The position numbers were made by a program, and so were the translations under genes. Below are positions 1-52,528 of a stretch of DNA of 64,000 nt, in pieces. Under the pieces are notes generated by a model. The model was not told the DNA's origin. It was given only the letters and a program-made list of their open reading frames with translations, and searched no databases. This DNA is from Escherichia phage AV116, in sequence record OR352946.1, one strand, 5' to 3'. Within the stretch, counting starts at the first letter, position 1, and every line of letters starts with the position of its first letter.

Positions 1-2317
<2,317 letters not shown>

Positions 2318-2344
2318 AAATAAAGCAAATTAAGAGGAATTAAA

Positions 2345-4327
2345 ATGGCACTTCTCTCTCCGGGCGTTGAGCTCAAAGAAACTACCGTACAGAGTACTGT
2401 AGTTAATAACTCCACTGGTACTGCTGCCCTGGCTGGAAAATTCCAATGGGGACCTGCATTCCAGATTAAACAAATCACTGATGAAGTTGCATTGGTTGAT
2501 ATGTTTGGTACTCCTAATACGGATACAGCAGATTATTTCATGTCTGCTATGAACTTCCTTCAATATGGTAATGACCTTCGTGTCGTACGCGCAGTTGATC
2601 GTGATACTGCTAAGAACTCATCTCCTGTGGCAGGCAATATTGAATTCACAATCTCTGCTACTGGTAGTAACTATGCGGTTGGTGATAAAATTATCGTTAA
2701 GTATTTGACCGAAACTGTTGAAGCAGATGGTTATGTCACTTCAGTTGATGTCGATGGTAAAATTCTTAACATTTATATCCCAACCGGTAAAATTATTGCT
2801 CGTGCAAAAGAAATTAATGAATATCCGGCATTGGGTTCTAACTGGACCGCCGAAGTTGCCAGTTCTTCTTCTGGACTTTCTGGCGTTATTACAATTGGTT
2901 CTATCGTAACTGATTCGGGTATTCTGTTAACTGAAGTTGAAACTTCTGAAGAAGCTATTACTTCTCTAACTTTCCAAGAATCTATTAAAAAATATGGTGT
3001 CCCAGGCGTAGTTGCTCTTTATCCTGGTGAACTTGGCGACCAGCTCGAAATTGAAATCGTATCTAAAGCAGACTATGACAAAGGTGCTTCAGCCCAGTTA
3101 AAAATTTATCCTGATGGTGGTACTCGTGCATCTACTGCTAAAGCAATCTTTGGGTATGGCCCACAAACTGATGACCAATATGCAATTATCGTTCGTCGTA
3201 ACGATGCTGTAGTTCAGAGCGTAGTTCTTTCTACTAAACGCGGTGAACGAGATATTTATGGTAGTAATATCTTTATTGATGATTTCTTTGCTAAAGGCGC
3301 AAGCAATTATATTTTCGCTACTGCACAAGGTTGGCCAAAAGGTTTCTCTGGCGTAATCAAACTGGGTGGCGGCTTATCATCTAATGAAACTGTTGACGCT
3401 GGTGATTTAATGGAAGCTTGGGATTTGTTTGCTGACCGCGAATCTGTTAATGCGCAGTTGTTTATTGCCGGTTCTTGTGCAGGTGAATCTTTAGAAGTTG
3501 CTTCTACAGTTCAGAAACATGTTGTAGCAATTGGTGATTCTCGCCAAGATTGCTTGGTTCTTTGCTCACCGCCACGTGCAACTATAGTCGGTATTCCTGT
3601 TAATCGTGCAGTTGATAATCTGGTTGATTGGCGTACTGCGTCAGGAACTTACACTGATAATAACTTTAATGTAAGTTCTACTTATGCCGCTATTGACGGT
3701 AACTATAAATATCAATATGACAAATATAATGATGTGAATCGTTGGGTTCCATTAGCTGCTGATATTGCTGGTCTTTGTGCTCGCACAGACAATATTTCTC
3801 AGCCTTGGATGTCTCCTGCCGGTTATAACCGTGGACAAATTCTTAACGTTATTAAGCTTGCAATTGAAACTCGCCAAGCGCAGCGTGATCGTTTGTACCA
3901 GGAAGCTATTAACCCTGTTACTGGTACCGGTGGTGATGGGTATGTTCTGTACGGTGATAAAACTGCCACTTCTGTTCCTTCACCATTTGACCGTATTAAC
4001 GTTCGTCGTTTGTTCAATATGGTTAAAACGAACATTGGTTCAGCATCCAAATATCGCCTGTTTGAATTGAACAACGCATTTACCCGTTCTTCTTTCCGTA
4101 CAGAGACTTCTCAATATCTACAGGGTATTAAAGCTCTCGGTGGTGTATATAACTTTAAAGTTGTTTGTGATACTACCAATAACACCCCAGCAGTTATCGA
4201 CCGTAATGAATTTGTAGCTACTTTCTACTTACAACCTGCAAGATCGATAAATTATATTACGTTGAACTTTGTAGCAACAGCAACGGGTGCCGATTTCGAC
4301 GAACTAATTGGTGCTGTAGGTGCCTAA
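2345..4327 (+). CDS. 18: tail sheath protein gp18
   Basis: 660 aa, position after terminase and before tail tube; T4 gp18-like sequence. Confidence 0.95.
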   Translation: MALLSPGVELKETTVQSTVVNNSTGTAALAGKFQWGPAFQIKQITDEVALVDMFGTPNTDTADYFMSAMNFLQYGNDLRVVRAVDRDTAKNSSPVAGNIEFTISATGSNYAVGDKIIVKYLTETVEADGYVTSVDVDGKILNIYIPTGKIIARAKEINEYPALGSNWTAEVASSSSGLSGVITIGSIVTDSGILLTEVETSEEAITSLTFQESIKKYGVPGVVALYPGELGDQLEIEIVSKADYDKGASAQLKIYPDGGTRASTAKAIFGYGPQTDDQYAIIVRRNDAVVQSVVLSTKRGERDIYGSNIFIDDFFAKGASNYIFATAQGWPKGFSGVIKLGGGLSSNETVDAGDLMEAWDLFADRESVNAQLFIAGSCAGESLEVASTVQKHVVAIGDSRQDCLVLCSPPRATIVGIPVNRAVDNLVDWRTASGTYTDNNFNVSSTYAAIDGNYKYQYDKYNDVNRWVPLAADIAGLCARTDNISQPWMSPAGYNRGQILNVIKLAIETRQAQRDRLYQEAINPVTGTGGDGYVLYGDKTATSVPSPFDRINVRRLFNMVKTNIGSASKYRLFELNNAFTRSSFRTETSQYLQGIKALGGVYNFKVVCDTTNNTPAVIDRNEFVATFYLQPARSINYITLNFVATATGADFDELIGAVGA

Positions 4328-4359
4328 TAAGACGCCTGATGGGCTATTTCGGTAGCCCA

Positions 4360-4367
4360 TATAAATA
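4360..4367 (+). promoter_or_regulatory. late promoter TATAAATA for gene 19
   Basis: TATAAATA immediately after a GGGCTA..TAGCCC stem-loop that follows the gene 18 stop. Confidence 0.65.
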
Positions 4368-4439
4368 TACTATATCGTTTAAAAATTAATTCTATGGGCA
4401 TCCGGTTAATCCTAAGCCCATATTACTACAGAGGCTAAT

Positions 4440-4931
4440 ATGTTTGTAGATGACGTAACTCGTGCCTTCGAATCAGGTGATTTCGCTCGCCCTAACCTGT
4501 TCGAAGTAGAAATCTCTTATCTTGGGCAAAACTTTAGCTTCCAGTGTCGTGCTACGGCTCTTCCTGCTGCGATCGTTGAAAAGGTTCCTGTTTCTTATAT
4601 GAACCGTAAAATTAACGTGGCCGGTGATCGTACATTTGATGATTGGACTATTACAGTAATGAACGATGATGCTCATAGCATTCGTCAGAAATTTGTTGAT
4701 TGGCAAGGTATTGCAGCAGGACAAGGTAATGAAATTACCGGTGGTAAACCTGCTGAATATAAAAAGTCTGCTATCGTTCGTCAATTTGCTCGTGATGCTA
4801 AAACGGTCACTAAAGAAGTTGAAATTGTCGGCTTGTGGCCTACTAACGTTGGCGAAGTATCTCTTGACTGGGACAGCAATAACGAGATTGAAACGTTCGA
4901 AGTAACTCTTGCTCTTGATTGGTGGGAATAA
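4440..4931 (+). CDS. 19: tail tube protein gp19
   Basis: 163 aa, T4 gp19 size and position. Confidence 0.95.
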   Translation: MFVDDVTRAFESGDFARPNLFEVEISYLGQNFSFQCRATALPAAIVEKVPVSYMNRKINVAGDRTFDDWTITVMNDDAHSIRQKFVDWQGIAAGQGNEITGGKPAEYKKSAIVRQFARDAKTVTKEVEIVGLWPTNVGEVSLDWDSNNEIETFEVTLALDWWE

Positions 4932-4979
4932 TCTGGTTGGGGAGAAATCCCCAGCTTCCCGTGATGACGGAGAAGTCCA

Positions 4980-41413: not shown

Positions 41414-41823
41414 TACTTTTTCTTATGTTGGATATTCCAAGGCGGGTTGAACTTTTTGATAAAAAGTGGTTCTTCAAGGTCCATTGTTGCGATGGTCATT
41501 GAACCAAGTTCGTTGGTGACTGAAAGGTCAAAACATTGGCGGGCCCAGAATTCAACCTTTTTGCCTTGCATTAAGGCATCCAAAATCATAAGTGATTTTC
41601 TTGAATCTGAAGTCTGGTCTTTTCGATTTATGGCTGTTCGATAATAGTTAATGCGTTTCTTTAAATTCTTGGTTTTACCAATATACACAAGTTCGTCATC
41701 TATAGCAATAGCATATATAACATTTTTCTTATTAGGGGCATCAATGGTTTTAATTGTTGCATCTTCTAATAGCTCCAATTCTATATATTTAATAAAGGAA
41801 TATTCGGCGGCAATATCTTTCAT
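41413..41823 (-). CDS. denA: endonuclease II (DenA)
   Basis: 136 aa, GIY-YIG-like core (YAIAIDDELVYIGKT); T4 denA size and position. Confidence 0.85.
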   Translation of the reverse strand: MKDIAAEYSFIKYIELELLEDATIKTIDAPNKKNVIYAIAIDDELVYIGKTKNLKKRINYYRTAINRKDQTSDSRKSLMILDALMQGKKVEFWARQCFDLSVTNELGSMTIATMDLEEPLFIKKFNPPWNIQHKKK

Positions 41824-41831
41824 AATAAAGT

Positions 41832-41845
41832 GGGACCGAAGTCCC
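41832..41845 (-). other. stem-loop GGGAC-UUCG-GUCCC between nrdB and denA
   Basis: tetraloop hairpin in the 26-nt gap; weak U-tract, so likely a partial terminator or RNA stability element. Confidence 0.5.
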
Positions 41846-41849
41846 GTCC

Positions 41850-42352
41850 TTAGAAATATTTTTTGTATGAATTGATTACATTTTGGTCTACATCATTATC
41901 AATTTGTGCGACAAGATAAGAACTGATTTCAACTTCCTGAGGAGCTGCTTGAACTAAATCAGAGTTCAGATATTCACGAATCCAAGGATAAGGATGTTTG
42001 GTCGGAGCATCAGTAATTGGACACGGCAAACCACACTGTTTCATACGAGACACAGTCAAGTAATCAACAAAAGCACACATACTCTGTGTATTGATACCTG
42101 GACATGTACCGTCTTTAAAGAGGTGTGCAGCCCATTCCTTCTCTTGACTATTTACTTCCATAAAAATGTCAACTGCTTCTTGTTCACATTCTTTAGCAAT
42201 TTGAACCCACTCATCACCATCAGTACCGGATTGAAGTTGACGGATAATGTACTGAGTACCCTTGAGATGGAGTTGTTCGTCACGAGCAATGAACTTCATA
42301 ATCTTTGCATTGCCTTCCATAATTTCCATATTCTTATGGAAATTAAATGTAC
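41850..42352 (-). CDS. nrdB: ribonucleotide reductase small subunit NrdB, exon 2
   Basis: exon begins GT-ACA-TTT (completing codon TGT Cys with the last T of exon 1) giving ...YVSFA-C-TFNFHKNMEIMEGNAK, like the recalled E. coli ...[21 protein letters not shown]; boundary inferred. Confidence 0.75.
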
Positions 42353-42944
42353 CGTTATGTTCGATTGAGCTCGCTAATTCTCAACCCGTTCTCTTATGAA
42401 CTGCTGCATATTACTATGCAGACCAGACTATATCACAATCCCGGAGGGATTCTCCCCATTTCGAGTCGCTTGACCCTACGTCCGAAGACTAGTCGTTGAA
42501 CCTTGCTTTGCAATTGTCGCCGTGCCATCGTTTATATGTCGATGGTGATAAATCTTTCTTTTCACAATATGGACAATTCAATTGAATTCTATTTGGATTT
42601 AATTTGCATCTGTCATTATGTTTTAGATAAAACCCAGGACCTTTACCAATGTGACCGCAGAAATCACATGTGATTTCTTTTTGTGCAGGATGGGTTCCGT
42701 TCTTAACCATTTCTAATGTTTTTGCTGATGTTCTTCCATCAGAATCTTTAGGTATAGGCCCGTTAGCATCCATCCAAATTTTTCTATAATTCAATTGTGC
42801 ATCCTCTTAAAAGTATAATCATATTTATTTTATAATATACTAATTAAAGGTGCAAGCAAAACCTTGGCTGCTAGTTTTCCTATAAAGGACTTTCCAGCAA
42901 TTAAAGGAGTTTTCGATAAACGTTACCGTTTAAAGGCGCATTTT
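42353..42944 (-). mobile_element. group I intron in nrdB (about 592 nt)
   Basis: interrupts the NrdB frame; 3' core shares GACUAUAUC and GGGUCAAG-GACUCGAAA-type elements with the td intron; ends ...AACAUAACG; carries a short ORF. Confidence 0.75.
42489..42794 (-). CDS. intron-encoded zinc-finger ORF, probable truncated homing endonuclease (I-TevIII-like)
   Basis: 101 aa with CxxC...CxxC pairs (CDFCGH, CPYCEKK); too short for an intact HNH endonuclease. Confidence 0.45.
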   Translation of the reverse strand: MNYRKIWMDANGPIPKDSDGRTSAKTLEMVKNGTHPAQKEITCDFCGHIGKGPGFYLKHNDRCKLNPNRIQLNCPYCEKKDLSPSTYKRWHGDNCKARFND

Positions 42945-43620
42945 ACGCAAAAGATACATAAAAACGAATAGCTTCCAATGCATTGATGACATGCAAACAA
43001 AGATAAAGAGATTTCATTAGGTCTCGTTTAGCTTCGGTCTCTTGTTTAATAGCTCGGTTTAAACGAAGGTCGGCATCAGGAGATTCTTTAGCTTGTTCTA
43101 CAAATTCTTTAGCATTTTCCCAATTACGAGTCTTGACTAGAACATCATCATAATATTTACCTATTGATTCAGCTCGTTTCATGATTGCTTCGTCTAATAC
43201 AATCTCATCAAATACTTTGGATGGATCGGTATAAAGATTTCGCATAATATGAGTATACGAACGAGAGTGAATAGTTTCACTGAATGTCCATGTTGCAACC
43301 CACGTATCTAATGAAGGGTCGGAAAGCAGTGCCATAAGTACCGCAGATGGGGCCCTGCCTTGGATAGAATCTAATAATGATTGATACTTAAGGTTGTTTG
43401 TAAAGATGTCCTGTTGGAACTGAGGAAGCTTATTGAACTGGGCCGAATCCAGCATCAGGTTTACTTCTTCTGGTCGCCAGAAAAACGACAATTGCTTTTC
43501 AATAAGTTCTTCAAAAACTTTATGTCGCTGAATATCATAACGTGCGAGGCCAAGACCAGAACCAAAGAACATTGGTTCATTCAAAACATCGACTTGTTGT
43601 GTGTTAAAAACTGTACTCAT
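42945..43620 (-). CDS. nrdB: ribonucleotide reductase small subunit NrdB, exon 1
   Basis: 225 codons plus 1 nt; frame runs into a stop 1 codon after ...IRFYVSFA at the intron junction. Confidence 0.8.
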
Positions 43621-43675
43621 TATATTTTCTCACTTAGTTATTAACTCATCCATGAGTAAATTATAATCAAAAGTC

Positions 43676-45940
43676 TTAAAGCTTACAAGCAGAACAATCT
43701 TCAGCTTTAGGTGTTTCTAATTCATAGTCATCTGTACCTGACCCATCACGAGTGTTATGATAGTAGAGGTTTTTTCCGCCAAAGTACCAGAAGTAAAGCA
43801 GATCGTCAAGCATTACTGACATTGGCACTTTACCTTTCTCAAATACTGCAGGGTCATAGTAAGTATTAGCAGAAGCAGATTGGCACACCCATTTCAACAT
43901 GATAGCAACTTGGGTCAAATAAGGTTTATTACCTTTCTTAGCAAGTTTCCACGCGTAGTCGTAAAGACTCATGTTATGTTCTATATTAGGAACAACCTGT
44001 CGGAAGTTGCCTTCTTTAGATTCTTTAATACTTACAGGTCCACGAGGTGGTTCTATACCATTTGTGCTATTTGAGACTTGACTGCTTGACTCACAAGGCA
44101 TGAGTGCAGACAACGTTGAGTTACGAATTCCATGTTCTTTGAGTTCAGCTCGAAGTTCTTCCCAGTCACAGACATAGTTCGGGGCTGCGATTTGGTCAAT
44201 CTTTTTATTGTACCAGTCGATAGGTAATTCGCCTCTAGACCATTTAGTGTCTGAATAATACTCACAAGGTCCTTTTTCTTTGGCGAGTTTGATTGATGCT
44301 TTGATAAGGCCATATTGCAATCTCTCGAACAATTCATGGGTCAAATCGTTAGCGTCTTCATATGAAGCAAAGTTAGAAGCTAACCATGCAGCATAGTTCG
44401 TCACACCAACACCGAGATTTCGACGCTTTTTAGCTTTTAAAGCTTCTGGAACCGGATAATCTTGATAGTCTAACAGGTTATCAAGTGCACGTACTTGTAC
44501 TTCAGCAAGTTCATTAATTTTATCTTGGTCTTGCCAATCAAATTTATCTAATACAAAAGCAGATAATGTGCATAAACCAATTTCAGCATCAGGACCATTC
44601 ACATCATTAGTTGGAATAGCGATTTCACAACATAAGTTACTCTGACGAATTGGAGCTTTTTCACGAATAAACGGAGTGTAGTTATTCGTGTTATCAACAA
44701 ACTGTGGATAAATTCGAGCAGTGCCAGAACGTTCAGTCATGAACAATTCAAAGAGTTCTAGTGCTTTGATTCTTTTCTTTCTGATTGTTGGGTCTTTTTC
44801 AGCTTTCTCATAAAGCTCACGGAATTTATCTTGATCTTCAAAGAACGAGTAGTATAGTTCACCTGACATTTCGTGAGGGCTAAATAAAGTAATATAATCA
44901 TTTTTACCAAGGCGTTCCATCATAAGGTCATTAATCTGAATTCCGTAGTCCATATGTCGAATACGGTTTTCATCCACGCCTTTGTTATTTTTCAGAACTA
45001 ATAGGTTCTCTACTTCTAAGTGCCACATCGGATAATACGCTGTAGCAGCACCACCACGAATACCACCTTGAGAACAAGATTTTACTGCAGTTTGGAAATG
45101 TTTCCAGAATGGAATAACACCTGTATGTCGAACTTCACCCGTACCGATCTTAGAACCTTCTGCACGAAGCATACCAACGTTGATACCGATACCAGCTCGT
45201 TTAGAAATATATTCAATAATTGATGCTGAAGTTTTGTTAATAGATTTTAACGAATCACCTGCTTCAATAACTACACAACTAGAGAACTGGCGAGTTGGAG
45301 TACGAGCACCTGCCATAATTGGGGTTGGCAATGAAACTTGATGAGTAGAAACGGCATCATAAAAACGAATAATATGTTTCAAACGGTCATGAGTTTCGTC
45401 TTGGTGTAAGGCCATGCCAATAGCCATGATAGCAAACTGGGGAGTTTCATAAATCTTCCCAGTTGTTTTATCTTTAACTAGATATTTTTCTTTAAGCTGC
45501 ATAGCACCAGCATAAGTCAGGTCAAAGTCTCGTTCATGTTTAATCTGTGAATCGAGATAAATGATTTCTTCTGCTGAATATTGAGACAACAGCTCAGGGT
45601 CATATTTGCCTTCATTAACACAGTAAGAAATATGGTCTATAAAAGCAGGCGGTTCAAACTGCCCATATACATCTTTACGAAGTGCAAACATTAGCCCTTT
45701 GGCGGCGACATACTGATAATCAGGTTCTTCGACAGAAATCAAGTTAGCTGCAACTTTAATACAAATCTTCTGAATATCTTTGGTGCTCATCCCGTCGACA
45801 AGATGGGTCTTAATTTCTTCATACAATTCGTATGGGTCGATTTGTGTTCCTTCACACTGCCAAGTTAATACTTGAATAATTTTCTGTGCATCAAAATTTT
45901 GGGATACACCTGAATTTTTCACTACTTTAAAATTATACAT
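43676..45940 (-). CDS. nrdA: ribonucleotide reductase large subunit NrdA
   Basis: 754 aa; active-site region NLCCEIA; T4 NrdA size. Confidence 0.95.
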   Translation of the reverse strand: MYNFKVVKNSGVSQNFDAQKIIQVLTWQCEGTQIDPYELYEEIKTHLVDGMSTKDIQKICIKVAANLISVEEPDYQYVAAKGLMFALRKDVYGQFEPPAFIDHISYCVNEGKYDPELLSQYSAEEIIYLDSQIKHERDFDLTYAGAMQLKEKYLVKDKTTGKIYETPQFAIMAIGMALHQDETHDRLKHIIRFYDAVSTHQVSLPTPIMAGARTPTRQFSSCVVIEAGDSLKSINKTSASIIEYISKRAGIGINVGMLRAEGSKIGTGEVRHTGVIPFWKHFQTAVKSCSQGGIRGGAATAYYPMWHLEVENLLVLKNNKGVDENRIRHMDYGIQINDLMMERLGKNDYITLFSPHEMSGELYYSFFEDQDKFRELYEKAEKDPTIRKKRIKALELFELFMTERSGTARIYPQFVDNTNNYTPFIREKAPIRQSNLCCEIAIPTNDVNGPDAEIGLCTLSAFVLDKFDWQDQDKINELAEVQVRALDNLLDYQDYPVPEALKAKKRRNLGVGVTNYAAWLASNFASYEDANDLTHELFERLQYGLIKASIKLAKEKGPCEYYSDTKWSRGELPIDWYNKKIDQIAAPNYVCDWEELRAELKEHGIRNSTLSALMPCESSSQVSNSTNGIEPPRGPVSIKESKEGNFRQVVPNIEHNMSLYDYAWKLAKKGNKPYLTQVAIMLKWVCQSASANTYYDPAVFEKGKVPMSVMLDDLLYFWYFGGKNLYYHNTRDGSGTDDYELETPKAEDCSACKL

Positions 45941-46580
45941 AATAATTCCATGTTGGATAATTTGATGATTTTAGACGGCGTCTAACCGTTTGGGTGCTCA
46001 TAGATAAAATTATTGACGCTTCATTTAATGTATCATATATTACGTCGTTTATAATTACTTTCTTTGCAAATGGATTCTTAGCTCCTATCATAGCGTTAGA
46101 AATAGCTTGCTTAGTTGATTCTTTTAATGGGACTCCTTTAGAAATTTTTGTTTTAATTTTTATATTGTATTGTCCGCGTTTTTTACCTAATAAAGAATTT
46201 CGTATCTTTTCTTTAGTCTCTTCAGATTTAACATGTCCTAGTTTGGAACGAGATATTTTATCTTTTGTTTTTTGGTCTAATTTTCGCCCTTTAAGCAAAT
46301 CAACCATTTTTGCTCTAGCCCATCCAAATTCTTTATTATTTCTAGAACTCATTAAATTAACCGCGGTTGCTAAACCTAAATTGTTCGGATATATTTTTAA
46401 TAAAAGAAGATGAGCCAAATAATGTTCTGAATATGTTAATTTAACTAGATTGTATGACTCATTGGTGCCACCTAAACATTTTGGGATTATATGATGCCAT
46501 TCACCATCGATATCTTCAAAATTTCTTTCTTTATTTACTAAGTTTTTATATATTTTTAAATAATCCATAGTATAATCCAC
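45933..46580 (-). CDS. free-standing HNH homing endonuclease (Mob-like)
   Basis: HNH motif EWHHIIPKCLGGTNESYNLVKLTYSEHYLAH; first ATG at 46568 gives 211 aa; 8-nt overlap with nrdA start. Confidence 0.75.
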   Translation of the reverse strand: MDYTMDYLKIYKNLVNKERNFEDIDGEWHHIIPKCLGGTNESYNLVKLTYSEHYLAHLLLLKIYPNNLGLATAVNLMSSRNNKEFGWARAKMVDLLKGRKLDQKTKDKISRSKLGHVKSEETKEKIRNSLLGKKRGQYNIKIKTKISKGVPLKESTKQAISNAMIGAKNPFAKKVIINDVIYDTLNEASIILSMSTQTVRRRLKSSNYPTWNYYV

Positions 46581-46643
46581 TTTGTAGTATCAACGGGATA
46601 GTATTTATCCCGTTAATTTATTATACACTTTTAAACTGAAGCG

Positions 46644-46898
46644 TTAATTATCCTCAGCAATAATTTCTTCGTATTCTTTAGGTGTCAAGACCGTGATATT
46701 GAAATAAACCAACGGTTCTTTTTCCACACCGTAACCACCACAGAATTCACGATATTCATAAATTCGTTCATGTGAATAACAAATGAATCGTTCACCTTTA
46801 ACTATGATTTCACTATTCGGTGAAGGGATATCTAGTTCGGTAGGATTTTTCATTTCAAAAATTGTGGTGCCATATGAATTAATAAAACGTAAAATCAT
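46644..46898 (-). CDS. hypothetical protein (84 aa)
   Basis: ORF between td exon 2 and the HNH gene. Confidence 0.5.
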   Translation of the reverse strand: MILRFINSYGTTIFEMKNPTELDIPSPNSEIIVKGERFICYSHERIYEYREFCGGYGVEKEPLVYFNITVLTPKEYEEIIAEDN

Positions 46899-46899
46899 T

Positions 46900-47211
46900 T
46901 TATACCGCCATTTTAGCTTTGATAGCTGGATGTGATTCGTAATTTTTAAGAACGAAATCAGAATGTGTCATCGTTCCGGTAACCCAGTCCATTTGGATTT
47001 TTGTAGGCCAATTCTCAAAATTACTAGGCCAATTAATTTCAAGAGAACATAACTCTTTAGGTTCACGACGAAGAACTTCTTTGCATTGTTCTACATGATT
47101 GCTGTAGATATGCGTGTTGCCGCCTGAGAACACTAAATCACCTGGGATAAGGTTACACATCTTCGCTACAATATGTGTCAAGGCAGCGTACGAGGCGATG
47201 TTGAACGGTAG
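46900..47211 (-). CDS. td: thymidylate synthase Td, exon 2
   Basis: exon begins CUACCGUUCAA as in T4; the ATG of the track ORF is the last 3 nt of the intron; encodes LPFNIASYAALTH... Confidence 0.9.
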   Translation of the reverse strand, partial: LPFNIASYAALTHIVAKMCNLIPGDLVFSGGNTHIYSNHVEQCKEVLRREPKELCSLEINWPSNFENWPTKIQMDWVTGTMTHSDFVLKNYESHPAIKAKMAV

Positions 47212-48227
47212 CATTATGTTCAGATAAGGTCGTTAATCTTATCCCGGAATTATATCCAGCTGCATGTCACCATGCAGAGCAGACTATATCTCCAACTTGT
47301 TAAAGCAAGTTGTCTATCGTTTCGAGTCACTTGACCCTACTCCCTAAAGGGATAGTCGTTAGGCATTTATGTAGAACCAATTCCACTTATCAGATTTTAC
47401 ACGGTAAGTAACTAATCCTGATGAAATTTCAAAATGTCTAGCCGCATCGGCTGCACATTCAAAAATAATCCCATCGCATGAAATCTTTTTGATGTTAGCT
47501 GGCTTTTTGCCTTTCATCTTTTCAGATAGTTTAGTTTTAGTTTTTTCTGAATGTTTGTGATTAAAGAACGGGTTATTTTCACCTGAACGTTTTCGGCACT
47601 TTCCACAAGTATCGGCCGAAGATGGTATGCGAACACCGCATTTACAAAACTTGTGGTTTTCTGGATTCCATCGGCCATTTTTACTTCCGTGTTTACCATA
47701 AAGAGCTTTCCGACCATCAGGACCAAGCTTAAGCATCTTAGCTTTAACAGTTTCAGCTCGTTTCTTAGCAATTTCTTCTTTTAATGGATGATTTGAAAGC
47801 ACATCGCCAAAAGACGCATCAGCAATATTATATCCATTAATTTTAGAATTTAGCTCTTTAATCCAAAAATTTTCTCGTTCAATAATCAAATCTTTCTCAT
47901 ATGGAATTTCTTCCAGTATAGAGCATTCAAAAACATTACCATGTTTATTAAAAGACCTTTGAAATTTTATAGAAGAGTGAACACCGTTTTCAAGGTCTTT
48001 AAAATGTCTCTTCCATCTTTTCTCAAAATCTTTAGCACTTCCAACATACACTTTACCGTTTAAAGTGTTTTTAATCTGATAAATTCCGCTTTTCATAAAC
48101 ACCTCTTTTTATATAGAAGTATTTATTAAAGGGTAGTCCTACAATTTAGCACGGGATTGTCTACTAGAGAGGTCCCCCGTTTAGATAGATTACAAGTATA
48201 AGTCACCTTATACCTAGGCCTAAATTA
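47212..48227 (-). mobile_element. group I intron in td (1016 nt)
   Basis: 5' end UAAUUUAGGCCUAGGUAUAAGGUGACUUAUACUUGUAAUCUAUCUAAACGGGG and 3' end ...CUGAACAUAAUG match the T4 td intron as I recall it; length 1016 nt as in T4. Confidence 0.9.
47359..48096 (-). CDS. intron-encoded GIY-YIG homing endonuclease I-TevI
   Basis: 245 aa from ATG (MKSGIYQIKNTLNGKVYVGSAKDFEKRW...), SD AAGAGGTG; track adds two codons from an upstream GTG. Confidence 0.9.
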   Translation of the reverse strand: MKSGIYQIKNTLNGKVYVGSAKDFEKRWKRHFKDLENGVHSSIKFQRSFNKHGNVFECSILEEIPYEKDLIIERENFWIKELNSKINGYNIADASFGDVLSNHPLKEEIAKKRAETVKAKMLKLGPDGRKALYGKHGSKNGRWNPENHKFCKCGVRIPSSADTCGKCRKRSGENNPFFNHKHSEKTKTKLSEKMKGKKPANIKKISCDGIIFECAADAARHFEISSGLVTYRVKSDKWNWFYINA

Positions 48228-48776
48228 ACCTAAGAAAACATCTACACTGCGTTGATACCATTGTAAATCAAGATGACCATTACGCACATTGAACTGATAG
48301 AACATATGGCAAGGAGGAAGAGCCATTTGATTTATTTCAGCCGGATTCCAGGCAGAAACAATTTGACGACGATCAGTTGGTAATTTTTTAATACGGTCGA
48401 TTGTTTCAACTAATTGGTCTACACCACCAAAATCACGCCATTGCTTACCATAAATAGGACCAAGTTCGCCGCTATGATATCCAAGGTCTTTTGCCTGATT
48501 TTCATAGTTGTCGTCCCAAATAGTTTTACCTTGAATAAGACTACCATGAGTACGAATACGCAAATCATTAACATTGGTAGAACCAGACATGAACCACAGT
48601 AACTCGGCAATACAAGCTTTCCATGCTAATTTCTTAGTTGTTACTGCAGGAAATCCTTTAGTAAGGTCCCAACGTAATTTAGTTCCGAACAGGGCAATAG
48701 TGCCGGTACCTGTACGGTCGTCTGTTTCGTAGCCATTTTCTAAGATATCTTTAATCAGGTATTGGTATTGTTTCAT
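48228..48776 (-). CDS. td: thymidylate synthase Td, exon 1
   Basis: 183 codons ending ...DVFLG at splice site CUUAGGU|UAAUUUAGG; active-site PCH motif present. Confidence 0.9.
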
Positions 48777-49360
48777 TTATATACGCTCTCAGTAATTTCG
48801 GTGAGTTCATCGATTCTGTAGTAATGAGATTCTACCATAGAACGTTGAAGCATAATATCTTGGACGAAATCTTTATCAAGTTGAACATCGGAATTAACAT
48901 GACATTTCTTAATGATTTTAGTCATCACGATTTCATCGGCATAAGGCAGTGCTTGTTTTAATAGAGCAGGGCCACCAATAATAGATACATCAACATGTTC
49001 AGTAGAAAGTTTAAACGGTACGTCAGTTGCAGGGCTAAACAGGTTAATTTCACCACCCGTTACCAAGGTAATAAATTCTGCTTGGGTGATATAGAACCGT
49101 GCAAGTTCGTTGGTTTTGGTCCTAGGCAGTTTTCTGGCCATATCAGTGACAACCACATGAGTACGATCCTGGAGTAGACGAGGTAATGATGCAAAAGTCT
49201 TAGCACCCATAACCATTACAGTGTTTTTAGTGCGAGCAACAAAGTTACTCATATCTTGTTTGATATGCTTCCATGGAAGTCCATCACCTAATCCAAAAGC
49301 ATATTCCAGTTTATCATCAACTGTTTTAGTCGGAGCGCATGCGAATACTAATTTAAGCAT
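48773..49360 (-). CDS. frd: dihydrofolate reductase Frd
   Basis: 195 aa; T4 DHFR-like blocks (FGLGDGLPW, VIGGPALL, LPYADE) and C-terminus ...TESVYK. Confidence 0.9.
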   Translation of the reverse strand: MLKLVFACAPTKTVDDKLEYAFGLGDGLPWKHIKQDMSNFVARTKNTVMVMGAKTFASLPRLLQDRTHVVVTDMARKLPRTKTNELARFYITQAEFITLVTGGEINLFSPATDVPFKLSTEHVDVSIIGGPALLKQALPYADEIVMTKIIKKCHVNSDVQLDKDFVQDIMLQRSMVESHYYRIDELTEITESVYK

Positions 49361-49363
49361 TTT

Positions 49364-49612
49364 TTATTTCCTCAGATTTTTCTTAACAACTTTCCAATCA
49401 GCTTTAAACGATTCAACATCAGAGTGGTGAATCCAGAATCCTGCACTTTCACCATCTTCGTAGAGTGGACATCCATCGCATTCTTCGTTCCAACCCATTT
49501 CACGTAAAGCTTCTTCAGCTTGTTCAAGGAGTTCAGCGTCTTTACCAACGATGTTGAAGTACCATTTACCTCTAACTTCAGAATCTTTGATGCTCTGGCG
49601 TTGCAATCTCAT
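49364..49612 (-). CDS. hypothetical protein (82 aa, frd-upstream ORF)
   Basis: ATG at 49612 with GAAGGAG SD; the track N-terminal extension lacks an SD. Confidence 0.5.
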   Translation of the reverse strand: MRLQRQSIKDSEVRGKWYFNIVGKDAELLEQAEEALREMGWNEECDGCPLYEDGESAGFWIHHSDVESFKADWKVVKKNLRK

Positions 49613-50180: not shown

Positions 50181-51080
50181 TTATAGACCAGCTAACAGGT
50201 CATCGAGGTCACCATCGTCAGAAGACGAGGAACTCATGAAGTCATCTTCAGTTTTTGCAGAACCAAAGGCTTCCATGTCTTTATCAAAATCGTCAAGGTC
50301 AGAAGCAACTTTATCTGCAACAGAAGCTGCTGCGGCTGCTGCACCACCAAGAGCGGCAGTACCAAGAACTTGATTAAATTTAGTATTCAATTCTTCAAAC
50401 GATTTGAACTTATCTTTAGAAGTCATTTCAGAAAGGTCGACCATTTGTTCGAACAATTCTTTCTGGAAAGATTCATCATCAATGTTTGGAATCGCAGATT
50501 GATTCAGGAATTTAGATTCGTCGTAGTTACTGAAACCAGAAACCTGTTTAACTTTCAGCACAAAGTTAGCACCTTCCCACGGGCAAGTTACATCAACAGG
50601 AGTTTCACCCATTTCAGTATCGACTGCAATCATTGCATTGATTTTGTCCCAAATCTTTTTACCGAAACGATATTTGAATACTTTACCTTCATTATCTGGA
50701 GCTTGAGGGTCTTTAACAACCAGAATATTAGCCCAATAAGAAGTTTTACGTTTCAGTTGAGAATATTCAGTTTTGTTGGTATTGTACAGGTCATTTTTAC
50801 TAATGTACTGACATACAGGACAAGAGTCATAATCGCCGTGTGTAGATGAACAGGTTTCAATATACCATTTACCATTTTTCTTGAACCCGTGGTTAACAAG
50901 AATTGTAAACGGAAGTGCGTCATCTGTTTTTGCCGGCAGGAAACGAATTACCGCTTGACCATTACCGGATGCATCGAGTTTCAGCTTCCATTCACCTTTA
51001 TCTTCTGAAGAGAAACCTTTGTTACCATTCAGTTTAGCCATCTGAGCTGCGAGGTCTGCGGTACTTTTACGTTTAAACAT
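50181..51080 (-). CDS. 32: single-stranded DNA-binding protein gp32
   Basis: 299 aa; zinc site with CPVC; acidic Ser/Asp-rich C-terminus; T4 gp32-like. Confidence 0.95.
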
Positions 51081-51197: not shown

Positions 51198-51851
51198 TTA
51201 ATACTTACATGATTTGATTGTTTCTATGAACAATTTCTTAGCAGCATTTCTATCGATTTGAAGTATTTTTCGATATGCCTTTAATTTGGTAGAATAATTT
51301 TGCCAGACTAAGTTATCGGTGAGTTCGTCGTGCTTATCTATAATATTCAAAAACGAGTCCAACAATAAGAAAGTCTCAAATGAAATTATATTGCTTTGTA
51401 GCAATTTGAATATGTAGCTCGACTGAACGTTGCTATTATAATCAAATATCTCTTGAAGCGCACTAACTTCAACTTTCTTACTGAAATAGTAGATGTTACG
51501 TACGTCTTCAGCAAACGTCTCCTTGGCTTGTTTGAGACGTCCAATATATTCCCTATAGAAAACTAATGCATCAGCGTCTGATATCTCACCAATCCATGCG
51601 TCTTGGTTAGCAACTAAGTTGCTTATGAATATCAAGGTGAGTTCCTTCAATTTATATTTCTCTGCTAGTTTTTCAAAGAAATATTTATCTCGGCGTTTTT
51701 GATACGCATTATCCGAAACACGCATGCACCAGTTATATTTGATTACGTCATACCGACCACCAAAGTGGTTTTTGCACATCAAGTATAGTTTATATACTGA
51801 TTTTCCATTAATATAACGTTCTCCGTCAGGAGGCATGCGTATTTTAATCAT
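51198..51851 (-). CDS. 59: helicase loader gp59
   Basis: 217 aa, T4 gp59 size and position upstream of gene 32. Confidence 0.9.
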   Translation of the reverse strand: MIKIRMPPDGERYINGKSVYKLYLMCKNHFGGRYDVIKYNWCMRVSDNAYQKRRDKYFFEKLAEKYKLKELTLIFISNLVANQDAWIGEISDADALVFYREYIGRLKQAKETFAEDVRNIYYFSKKVEVSALQEIFDYNSNVQSSYIFKLLQSNIISFETFLLLDSFLNIIDKHDELTDNLVWQNYSTKLKAYRKILQIDRNAAKKLFIETIKSCKY

Positions 51852-52528
51852 AGTTCCATCCAGGCCATTTTGAAGATTTAAGTCTATATGTAACTAAAGA
51901 CGCAGAAATATTAAAAACATTTGAAACTTCTTTACACGAGGCGTATTTTATACCATCAATAATTATAGGTTTTTGTTTTTTAATAGTTCTTTCTTTAGAA
52001 TGCGGCTTTGAATTTGCTATTCTAAGAGCTTCTTTGGTTGAATCAGGCATCGGCTTATTCGTTTTTCGCCCTTTTCGGACTTTACTCAAGGCCAATTTGT
52101 GAGCTTCAGATAGTTTCTTACCCTTATTAGGTGACGGTATTTTTCTTTCTAGTCTTGTTTTAGATACTTTAGCCTTAGTCTCTTCAGATCTAGGTTTACC
52201 TAATTTAGAAAGTGAAATAGGACCTTTTAGCTTCATCACTTTGTTTTTTACCAGGACCACCTTTACCACCGGGAACTAAGTTATAAGTATCATCTCGCAA
52301 AACAAAATCTTCATTAACCAATTCTGCTTCTTTTTTATAGGCGTCCTTGTCATTATCATATTCATAAAGAATTTCGGTATAAAAATTTTTTAGTCCATAT
52401 TTAGCTTTGGCCGCTAATATAGCGCGGCCTGATCCAATATACCAATCTTTCTCTTTATGTTTTTTGTGTACGCCTATATAAATTTTACCATTTATTTTAT
52501 TGGTAGTTTTATACACAACGTATTTCAT
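51844..52528 (-). pseudogene. Seg-like GIY-YIG homing endonuclease split by a frameshift at an A6 run
   Basis: N-terminal ORF (52205-52528, 107 aa) has GIY-YIG-like YKTTN..KIYIGVH; C-terminal ORF (51844-52269, 141 aa) has the K/S-rich DNA-binding region; frames overlap 65 nt around minus-strand A6 at 52244-52249. Confidence 0.6.

Follow-up and report, generated by a model that had tools for sequence, protein, structure and literature searches.

What is a gene for an HNH endonuclease doing across the start of nrdA in a T4-like phage, at a site that no homing endonuclease gene (HEG) occupies in T4? The question is raised by an open reading frame (ORF) on the minus strand of Escherichia phage AV116 (sequence record OR352946.1), of which a stretch of 64,000 nucleotides (nt), here called the window, was analyzed. 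From sequence comparison and analogy with characterized T4 enzymes, we propose, with a probability of about 0.8, that this ORF is a HEG of the free-standing type and a member of the T4 Mob family, carried in an AT-rich cassette of 681 nt, that it would spread by intronless homing and that its expression would be coupled to that of nrdA. The features on which this proposal draws are as follows.

45933..46568, minus strand: coding sequence of the predicted HNH homing endonuclease, 211 amino acids (aa) plus stop, assigned by PHROG 655 and by BLASTP to T4 MobE, with all 11 copies full length
46392..46505, minus strand: HNH (beta-beta-alpha-metal) catalytic core, residues 22-59, EWHHIIPKCLGG...NLVKLT..EHYLAH
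46179..46238, minus strand: best Pfam match for a NUMOD3 DNA-binding repeat (PF07460; score 25.4 bits, cut-off 20.4)
45942..46091, minus strand: probable C-terminal I-TevI-type helix-turn-helix (HTH) DNA-binding domain, residues ~160-209
45911..46591, minus strand: 681-nt cassette specific to HEG-carrying genomes, comprising the endonuclease gene and a new nrdA 5' end, with junctions defined against 7 empty-site genomes
45911..45940, minus strand: nrdA codons 1-10 as supplied by the cassette (MYNFKVVKNS), an N-terminus found by tblastn only in the 11 HEG-carrying records
46592..46614, minus strand: conserved leader hairpin with a 9-bp stem, 12 bp in this genome, and a 5-nt loop, abutting the left junction of the cassette
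46620..46647, minus strand: predicted promoter-like site, by consensus match to a sigma-70 pattern (TTAACG-16-TATAAT) and to a MotA-box-like pattern (GCTTCA-N11-TATAAT, 46620-46642)

A Mob-type endonuclease with a probable I-TevI-type tail

The original prediction described an HNH ORF of 211-215 aa, wedged between a small ORF on the td side and nrdA and ending 8 nt inside the latter, and in these respects it describes the locus correctly. The two lengths correspond to an ATG at 46568, which is the start in every annotated GenBank record retrieved, and to an alternative GTG at 46580 that would yield 215 aa (45933-46580); pairing with a Shine-Dalgarno sequence is weak for the ATG (-3.1 kcal/mol) and nil for the GTG (+0.6). 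The flanking genes are those for a DUF5496 protein and for NrdA, and the stop codon TAA (45933-45935) falls inside nrdA, 5 nt after the nrdA ATG (45940), so that the stop of one gene and the start of the other share 8 nt, ATGTATAA (45933-45940).

Multiple lines of evidence place the protein among the homing endonucleases. It matches family 655 of PHROGs, 'homing endonuclease' (E = 2e-45), and the BLASTP comparison with T4 MobE called for at the outset gave 33% identity over residues 1-167 (E = 7e-27), which supports the reading as a free-standing HNH enzyme; furthermore, tblastn against a T4 genome found five matching places. Alignments with 46 and 65 homologues define the invariant columns H25, H26, P29, G34, N40, E48, H49, and H53, all of which are kept here, and the motif is thus intact, with the His...Asn...His arrangement on a beta-hairpin and helix that typifies the HNH superfamily, although the Pfam match to HNH_5 is weak. 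Downstream of the core, basic repeats akin to NUMOD3 run along residues ~95-165, and the homology with MobE extends over the HNH domain and this linker, as in a Mob-type enzyme.

The C-terminus is of another kind. The Pfam match to the I-TevI DNA-binding domain (PF20987) falls just under threshold, and sequence searches of the PDB returned marginal matches only (I-TevI DNA-binding domain, E = 0.28). An AlphaFold2 model with a mean pLDDT of 86.7 consists of a beta-beta-alpha core (residues 23-59), a helical linker and a C-terminal HTH, and the sole meaningful Foldseek match of this model in the PDB is the I-TevI DNA-binding domain (1i3j, probability 1.00). Moreover, the C-terminal 60 residues are 30% identical (E = 5e-6) to the homologue of I-TevI encoded 0.8 kb away. 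MobE, in contrast, ends in a CPHCGKK...C tail. Judged by its sequence and predicted fold, the protein is a Mob-family HNH enzyme with a NUMOD3 linker and a probable I-TevI-type tail.

A cassette that replaces the start of nrdA

An alignment of seven HEG-carrying sequences, one of them the window, with seven genomes that have the empty site shows the 681-nt cassette in place of a 56-nt segment, which comprises the 3' part of the leader together with the Shine-Dalgarno sequence and codons 1-7 of nrdA. The junctions are identical across all seven HEG-carrying sequences: the left one is at the base directly after the hairpin and the right one lies inside nrdA. As a result, the N-terminus of NrdA reads MYNFKVVKNSGVS... 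in HEG-carrying genomes and MQVTKSSGVS... in genomes without the HEG. A degenerate DNA pattern search of IMG/VR for a donor of the cassette-derived N-terminus found nothing. The empty-site allele is a plain 87-nt intergenic region, and in the window the ORF stands between the complete DUF5496 gene and nrdA; the gene is therefore free-standing.

With respect to its distribution, the ORF is present in 11 of 394 phage records that match the region; the copies are all full length, share the one site and are at least 98.6% identical in amino-acid sequence, and a Logan metagenomic assembly has the gene there as well. The intact empty site was found in 116 records by a search with the empty-site sequence, so that the cassette is carried by ~9% of related Mosigvirus genomes (11 of ~127 comparable ones). 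Such sporadic presence at one fixed site among close relatives is characteristic of Mob-type genes. Beyond these near-identical copies there is a wide gap: among 5.8 billion clusters, no protein cluster falls between ~50% and 98% identity, and the next relatives anywhere are ~50% identical or less. A third allele exists as well. JK42 and some other Mosigviruses hold nrdA.1 at the same site together with an ordinary nrdA start (in JK42, a homologue of 101 aa, L024 1208-1513, that overlaps nrdA by 10 nt), and the interval accordingly has three alleles, namely empty, nrdA.1 and HEG. The promoter and hairpin leader of the other two alleles are absent from JK42.

The replacement is predicted to affect the expression of nrdA. 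Shine-Dalgarno pairing of nrdA, at -6.1 kcal/mol for the empty allele, -5.9 for T4 and -5.8 for the nrdA.1 allele, drops to -3.3 in HEG-carrying genomes. Given the 8-nt overlap of stop and start together with this weakened Shine-Dalgarno sequence, nrdA is probably coupled translationally to the endonuclease gene, whose own ribosome-binding site would be weak. A pattern search of the coding strand detected no middle-promoter-like motif inside the endonuclease gene, and we therefore expect nrdA to be transcribed through it; the HEG would have no promoter of its own and would share a transcript with nrdA, initiated at the conserved promoter-like site (46620-46647). With the start of nrdA inside the 3' end of the HEG, translation of nrdA would follow on that of the endonuclease, and with such coupling, selection would be expected to disfavor loss of the cassette. 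No significant RNA structure is predicted around the overlap (z = -0.35) or, over 100 nt, for the leader of the empty allele (z = -0.9). Inspection by eye of the region read revealed no late promoter (TATAAATA), a motif for which no dedicated search was run.

Proposed homing, its candidate target and rival explanations

Several observations bear on whether the cassette moves. Among six HEG-carrying genomes, nucleotide diversity is 0.8% in the cassette, three to five times lower than in its left (4.3%) and right (2.2%) flanks. The flanks are not monophyletic, and the nearest flank relatives of HEG-carrying genomes are often genomes without the HEG; the presence of the td intron and the type of the ORF in the nrdB intron also vary among HEG-carrying genomes. 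The cassette is 28.6% GC, compared to 38% for nrdA and for the window, and of 10 variable codons in the HEG, six vary synonymously, four non-synonymously and none is catalytic. These signs agree better with the recent spread of an element under purifying selection than with an old vertical insertion.

The mechanism that we envisage is modeled on T4 MobE and the Seg endonucleases. In a mixed infection, the enzyme would nick or cut genomes that lack the HEG near its insertion site, and recombinational repair from the HEG-carrying genome would then copy the cassette in, a process known as intronless homing. Characterized free-standing endonucleases of T4 cut genomes that lack them, and the family has been reviewed (PMC2988022). 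MobE in particular nicks nrdB in phages without mobE, at codon 42 close to the 5' end of that gene; mobE has no promoter and is transcribed together with nrdA, it passes to progeny at high frequency, and its carriers apparently escape nicking through polymorphisms at the nicking site (PMC2790892).

Where might the target lie? Across the same seven versus seven sequences, fixed differences between genomes with and without the HEG were sought in frd, both td exons and the DUF5496 gene with its leader, as well as in nrdA past codon 10, the nrdA-nrdB spacer and nrdB exon 1, and none was found; a target in td or elsewhere in nrdA, as it would be revealed by fixed polymorphisms, was accordingly dropped. 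The replaced 56 nt are the only sequence from frd to nrdB exon 1 that consistently separates the two groups. Because this is the sole consistent difference, we tentatively place part of the recognition or cleavage site within or across the 56-nt segment, at somewhat less than even odds; carriers would then be immune, and the candidate cleavage site on a genome without the HEG may lie in or beside TGGAGTAATGTCTATCAACCTATACTGAGGAATATATGCAAGTAACTAAGAGCAGT. A more specific version, which we regard as doubtful, is that the enzyme recognizes the nrdA leader, Shine-Dalgarno sequence and first codons, and not coding sequence for a conserved catalytic site, that overwriting these confers immunity together with an addiction-like dependence of NrdA on the element, and that the chimera of HNH head and I-TevI-type HTH may define a subfamily with a preference for the td-nrdA module of nucleotide metabolism in unrelated phages.

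Characterized homing endonucleases usually recognize highly conserved, functionally critical coding sequence. The putative target here is the translation-initiation region of nrdA, which is not of that kind, and this weighs against homing as proposed. So do several other considerations. The argument from fixed differences compares 7 with 7 genomes and assumes that immunity stems from a target polymorphism; the mosaic flanks could be explained by ordinary homologous recombination of co-infecting phages, with no stimulation by a nuclease; the promoter and the translational coupling are predictions at the level of consensus matches; and cleavage, target and homing are all inferred by analogy.

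Conceivably, the gene could instead be stranded or domesticated, having entered once in an ancestor and being kept, without homing now, because the start and ribosome-binding site of nrdA are embedded in it; its patchy distribution would then stem from vertical descent and ordinary recombination. The location of the nrdA initiation region within the gene would indeed select against deletion, the same argument has been made for promoters embedded in the seg and mob genes of T4 (PMC2988022), and just 11 of the ~127 comparable genomes carry the gene. Nevertheless, we consider this unlikely, given that 11 of 11 copies are full length with intact catalytic residues, that substitutions lean toward synonymous ones, and that low diversity in the cassette between non-monophyletic flanks is the opposite of what an old vertical insertion would leave. 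Much less probable still is a role apart from homing, be it regulation of nrdA through its leader or action against competitors without self-copying. This notion draws on the precedent of I-TevI, which is also an autorepressor by virtue of its DNA-binding domain (PMC2988022), and on the position of the gene directly between the nrdA promoter and hairpin and nrdA itself; yet most related phages live without the gene, and the sharp, identical junctions in its presence/absence pattern are the signature of a mobile cassette.

The identity of the gene leaves less room for alternatives. Relocation of T4 mobE itself across nrdA, out of the gap between nrdA and nrdB, would account for the homology across the N-terminal 167 residues and for the missing mobE in the gap, which is only 55 nt here (from the end of nrdA at 43676 to the start of nrdB at 43620); both this gap and the location of mobE between nrdA and nrdB in T4, pointed out in the original prediction, were confirmed. 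The identity of only 33%, however, is equaled or exceeded by other members of the family (up to ~44-50% over partial lengths), and position and C-terminal domain both differ, an I-TevI-type HTH standing against the CxxC-containing tail of MobE; the ORF is thus not mobE, and the domain comparison effectively refutes a relocation, to which we attach a very small probability. An intron-encoded enzyme is less credible than any of these. The records of WFK and WFL6982 in GenBank carry the label 'group I intron endonuclease', and there is a weak match to TIGR01453, which is due to shared NUMOD3 and HTH modules; its score of 31.2 bits is far under the cut-off (56, or 56.05 as listed), the ORF lies between two complete genes, nrdA starts in its 3' end, and no exon or gene is interrupted. 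Finally, the ORF is not T4 NrdA.1: that gene, which occupies the same position in T4, is unrelated (BLASTP E = 7.6). With the HNH motif intact as well, neither of the two outcomes that the original prediction named as refuting it is borne out. We therefore retain the proposal of a mobile Mob-type cassette.

Leader, gene order and relatives

The leader immediately upstream of the cassette includes the inverted repeat that the original prediction placed just upstream of the ORF, at about 46596-46617. The repeat is real, its coordinates being a few bases off those of the hairpin given above, and consists of AACGGGATA-AATAC-TATCCCGTT. It folds at -18 kcal/mol (z = -4.25), with none of 200 shuffles folding as well, and its sequence occurs once in the window, with 0 matches expected by chance. 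The suggestion that it might be a remnant of the target does not hold, since all seven genomes compared that lack the gene have the hairpin and the promoter-like site in identical form. With or without the HEG, 13 of 13 genomes show no variation in the hairpin and the 60 nt that precede the junction, which rules out a target remnant or part of the insertion and identifies the hairpin as resident phage sequence of the nrdA leader. A regulatory role of the hairpin is possible; a transcript from the predicted promoter, itself conserved in empty-site genomes, would begin at approximately the first base of the hairpin. The general middle-promoter pattern GCTTNA-N10-13-TANNNT occurs 37 times in the window versus 15 expected, mostly on the coding strand.

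Two other interpretations of the hairpin were rejected. An intrinsic terminator on the gene strand is contradicted by the minus strand, on which no T-run follows the hairpin. PeSL-like shuffling cassettes, which combine a hairpin with a promoter, are known from RB49-type phages, but within the 64 kb the hairpin and the leader each occur only once. On the plus strand, the hairpin is followed by a T-rich run and was flagged as terminator-like (46592-46614); it could stop antisense transcription.

A 1.8-kb region around the ORF is 100% identical to Escherichia phage AV118 and 97-99.9% identical to ten further records, and every matching record with genus-level taxonomy is placed in Mosigvirus (Straboviridae, T4-like). 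All genes listed here, from gene 32 to nrdB, are on the minus strand, in the following order.

50181-51080, minus strand: gene 32
48773-49360, minus strand: frd
48225-48776, minus strand: td exon 1
47359-48102, minus strand: I-TevI homologue in the td intron
46900-47214, minus strand: td exon 2
46644-46898, minus strand: gene for a DUF5496 protein, homologue of T4 NrdA.2 and upstream neighbor of the HNH ORF (Pfam PF17600, E = 7.7e-12; BLASTP to T4 NrdA.2, E = 3e-16)
45933-46568, minus strand: the HNH ORF, between the DUF5496 gene and nrdA
43676-45940, minus strand: nrdA, 754 aa, downstream of the endonuclease gene, which overlaps its start
42943-43620, minus strand: nrdB exon 1
42489-42794, minus strand: truncated I-TevIII-like ORF, 101 aa, in the nrdB intron
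minus strand: nrdB exon 2, after the truncated I-TevIII-like ORF in gene order

An Rfam scan of positions 41500-49500 at gathering thresholds gave zero matches; it is uninformative on introns because the known td and nrdB group I introns were missed too.

Around nrdB the genomes differ in several ways. The ORF in the nrdB intron is truncated in the window, as it is in T4, and is a full 810-nt ORF in a20, JK45, G2285, and AV111, whereas nrdB is uninterrupted in SSE1, AV110, and APCEc01. The window has no mobE that could mobilize this intron ORF in trans. The nrdA-nrdB spacer and nrdB exon 1 (42943-43675) are variable at 202 of 733 positions among 13 genomes, far above the neighboring genes; this variability may result from co-conversion in the vicinity of the nrdB intron or be an effect of the alignment. 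A middle-promoter-like site at 43658-43682 (minus strand) is in the position of the nrdB middle promoter that Wilson and Edgell described for phages without mobE (PMC2790892). In AV111, nrdA consists of two ORFs split by an inserted homing-endonuclease gene (L003 2752-3462, within 1773-4932), an arrangement that resembles the mobE-split nrdA of Aeromonas phage Aeh1.

Among known systems, T4 MobE is the natural comparison. Beyond the homologous HNH domain and NUMOD3-type linker, both genes are free-standing, adjoin nrdA in the nucleotide-metabolism cluster, occur sporadically among relatives and lack a promoter of their own, so that they depend on upstream transcription (mapped for MobE, PMC2790892; predicted here). 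In contrast to mobE, which lies between nrdA and nrdB and carries the promoter of the downstream gene, the HNH gene lies upstream of nrdA, overlaps its start and comes in a cassette that replaces the ribosome-binding site and first codons of the downstream gene; the tail is an I-TevI-type HTH instead of a cysteine-containing one; the putative target is at the insertion site, whereas MobE nicks nrdB; and no internal terminator was found in the HNH gene, unlike mobE.

I-TevI probably shares the HTH module with the C-terminal ~60 residues of the HNH protein, but it has a GIY-YIG catalytic domain and a zinc finger that is absent here, and it is encoded in the td intron; at an identity of ~30%, there is no ground for expecting the two to have the same specificity for DNA. 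The HNH enzyme I-HmuI of Bacillus phage SPO1 (PDB 1U3E) is intron-encoded and 19% identical to the HNH protein. In T4, as in JK42, the interval from nrdA.2 to nrdA is filled by nrdA.1, which likewise runs into the start of nrdA, there for 10 nt; it differs in encoding an unrelated 108-aa protein with no nuclease motif and in keeping the normal NrdA N-terminus and a strong Shine-Dalgarno sequence.

The closest proteins with the same architecture from end to end, HNH, NUMOD3 and I-TevI-type HTH, come from uncultured phages (P0004, P0007, and P0015; 34% identity along the entire protein, E = 8e-35). Their genes too are free-standing and located in a nucleotide-metabolism neighborhood, although directly downstream of the thymidylate synthase gene instead of before nrdA, and apparently belong to a single uncultured-phage lineage. 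In some contigs of this type (L017-L023), the anti-defense-type gene Tad6 follows directly, or Acb3 is found further downstream. Other relatives of the HNH protein adjoin a helicase-like gene, a T4-type portal gene and others.

Another endonuclease gene of the window deserves mention. At 51844-52528 (minus strand), just upstream of the helicase-loader gene (51198-51851), lies a seg-type GIY-YIG endonuclease gene that is apparently split by a frameshift: a 107-aa ORF with the GIY-YIG N-terminus (52205-52528) overlaps a 141-aa ORF (51844-52269) with NUMOD3-like repeats and an I-TevI-type HTH, and the latter shares 36% identity with the C-terminal half of the HNH protein.

The literature search found the MobE work and reviews, and no description of an endonuclease upstream of nrdA in Mosigvirus phages; in GenBank, the ORF is already annotated, either as 'homing endonuclease' or under the incorrect label 'group I intron endonuclease'. 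This is, then, a known kind of gene with a shuffled tail, at a site where T4 has no HEG, and it has taken over the start of nrdA in an unusual way; existing knowledge of how such elements work is unchanged by it. It adds a fourth site of mobile nucleases to the td-nrdA-nrdB module of T4-like phages, besides the td intron, the nrdB intron and mobE, and provides an example of domain shuffling in phage homing endonucleases, in which a Mob-type HNH head is joined to a tail that resembles the DNA-binding domain of I-TevI. In the more specific version described above, synthesis of NrdA would depend on translation of the endonuclease through the 8-nt overlap, which would serve as a retention device. 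The replaced segment of 56 nt is a candidate target concrete enough to be tested. The cassette also marks a boundary prone to recombination, which concerns collections for phage therapy such as the AV phages. Moreover, nature has supplied a set of isogenic-like phages in three allelic states (empty, nrdA.1, HEG) at one site, which could be used for measuring homing, co-conversion and the cost of rewiring the translation start of an important gene.

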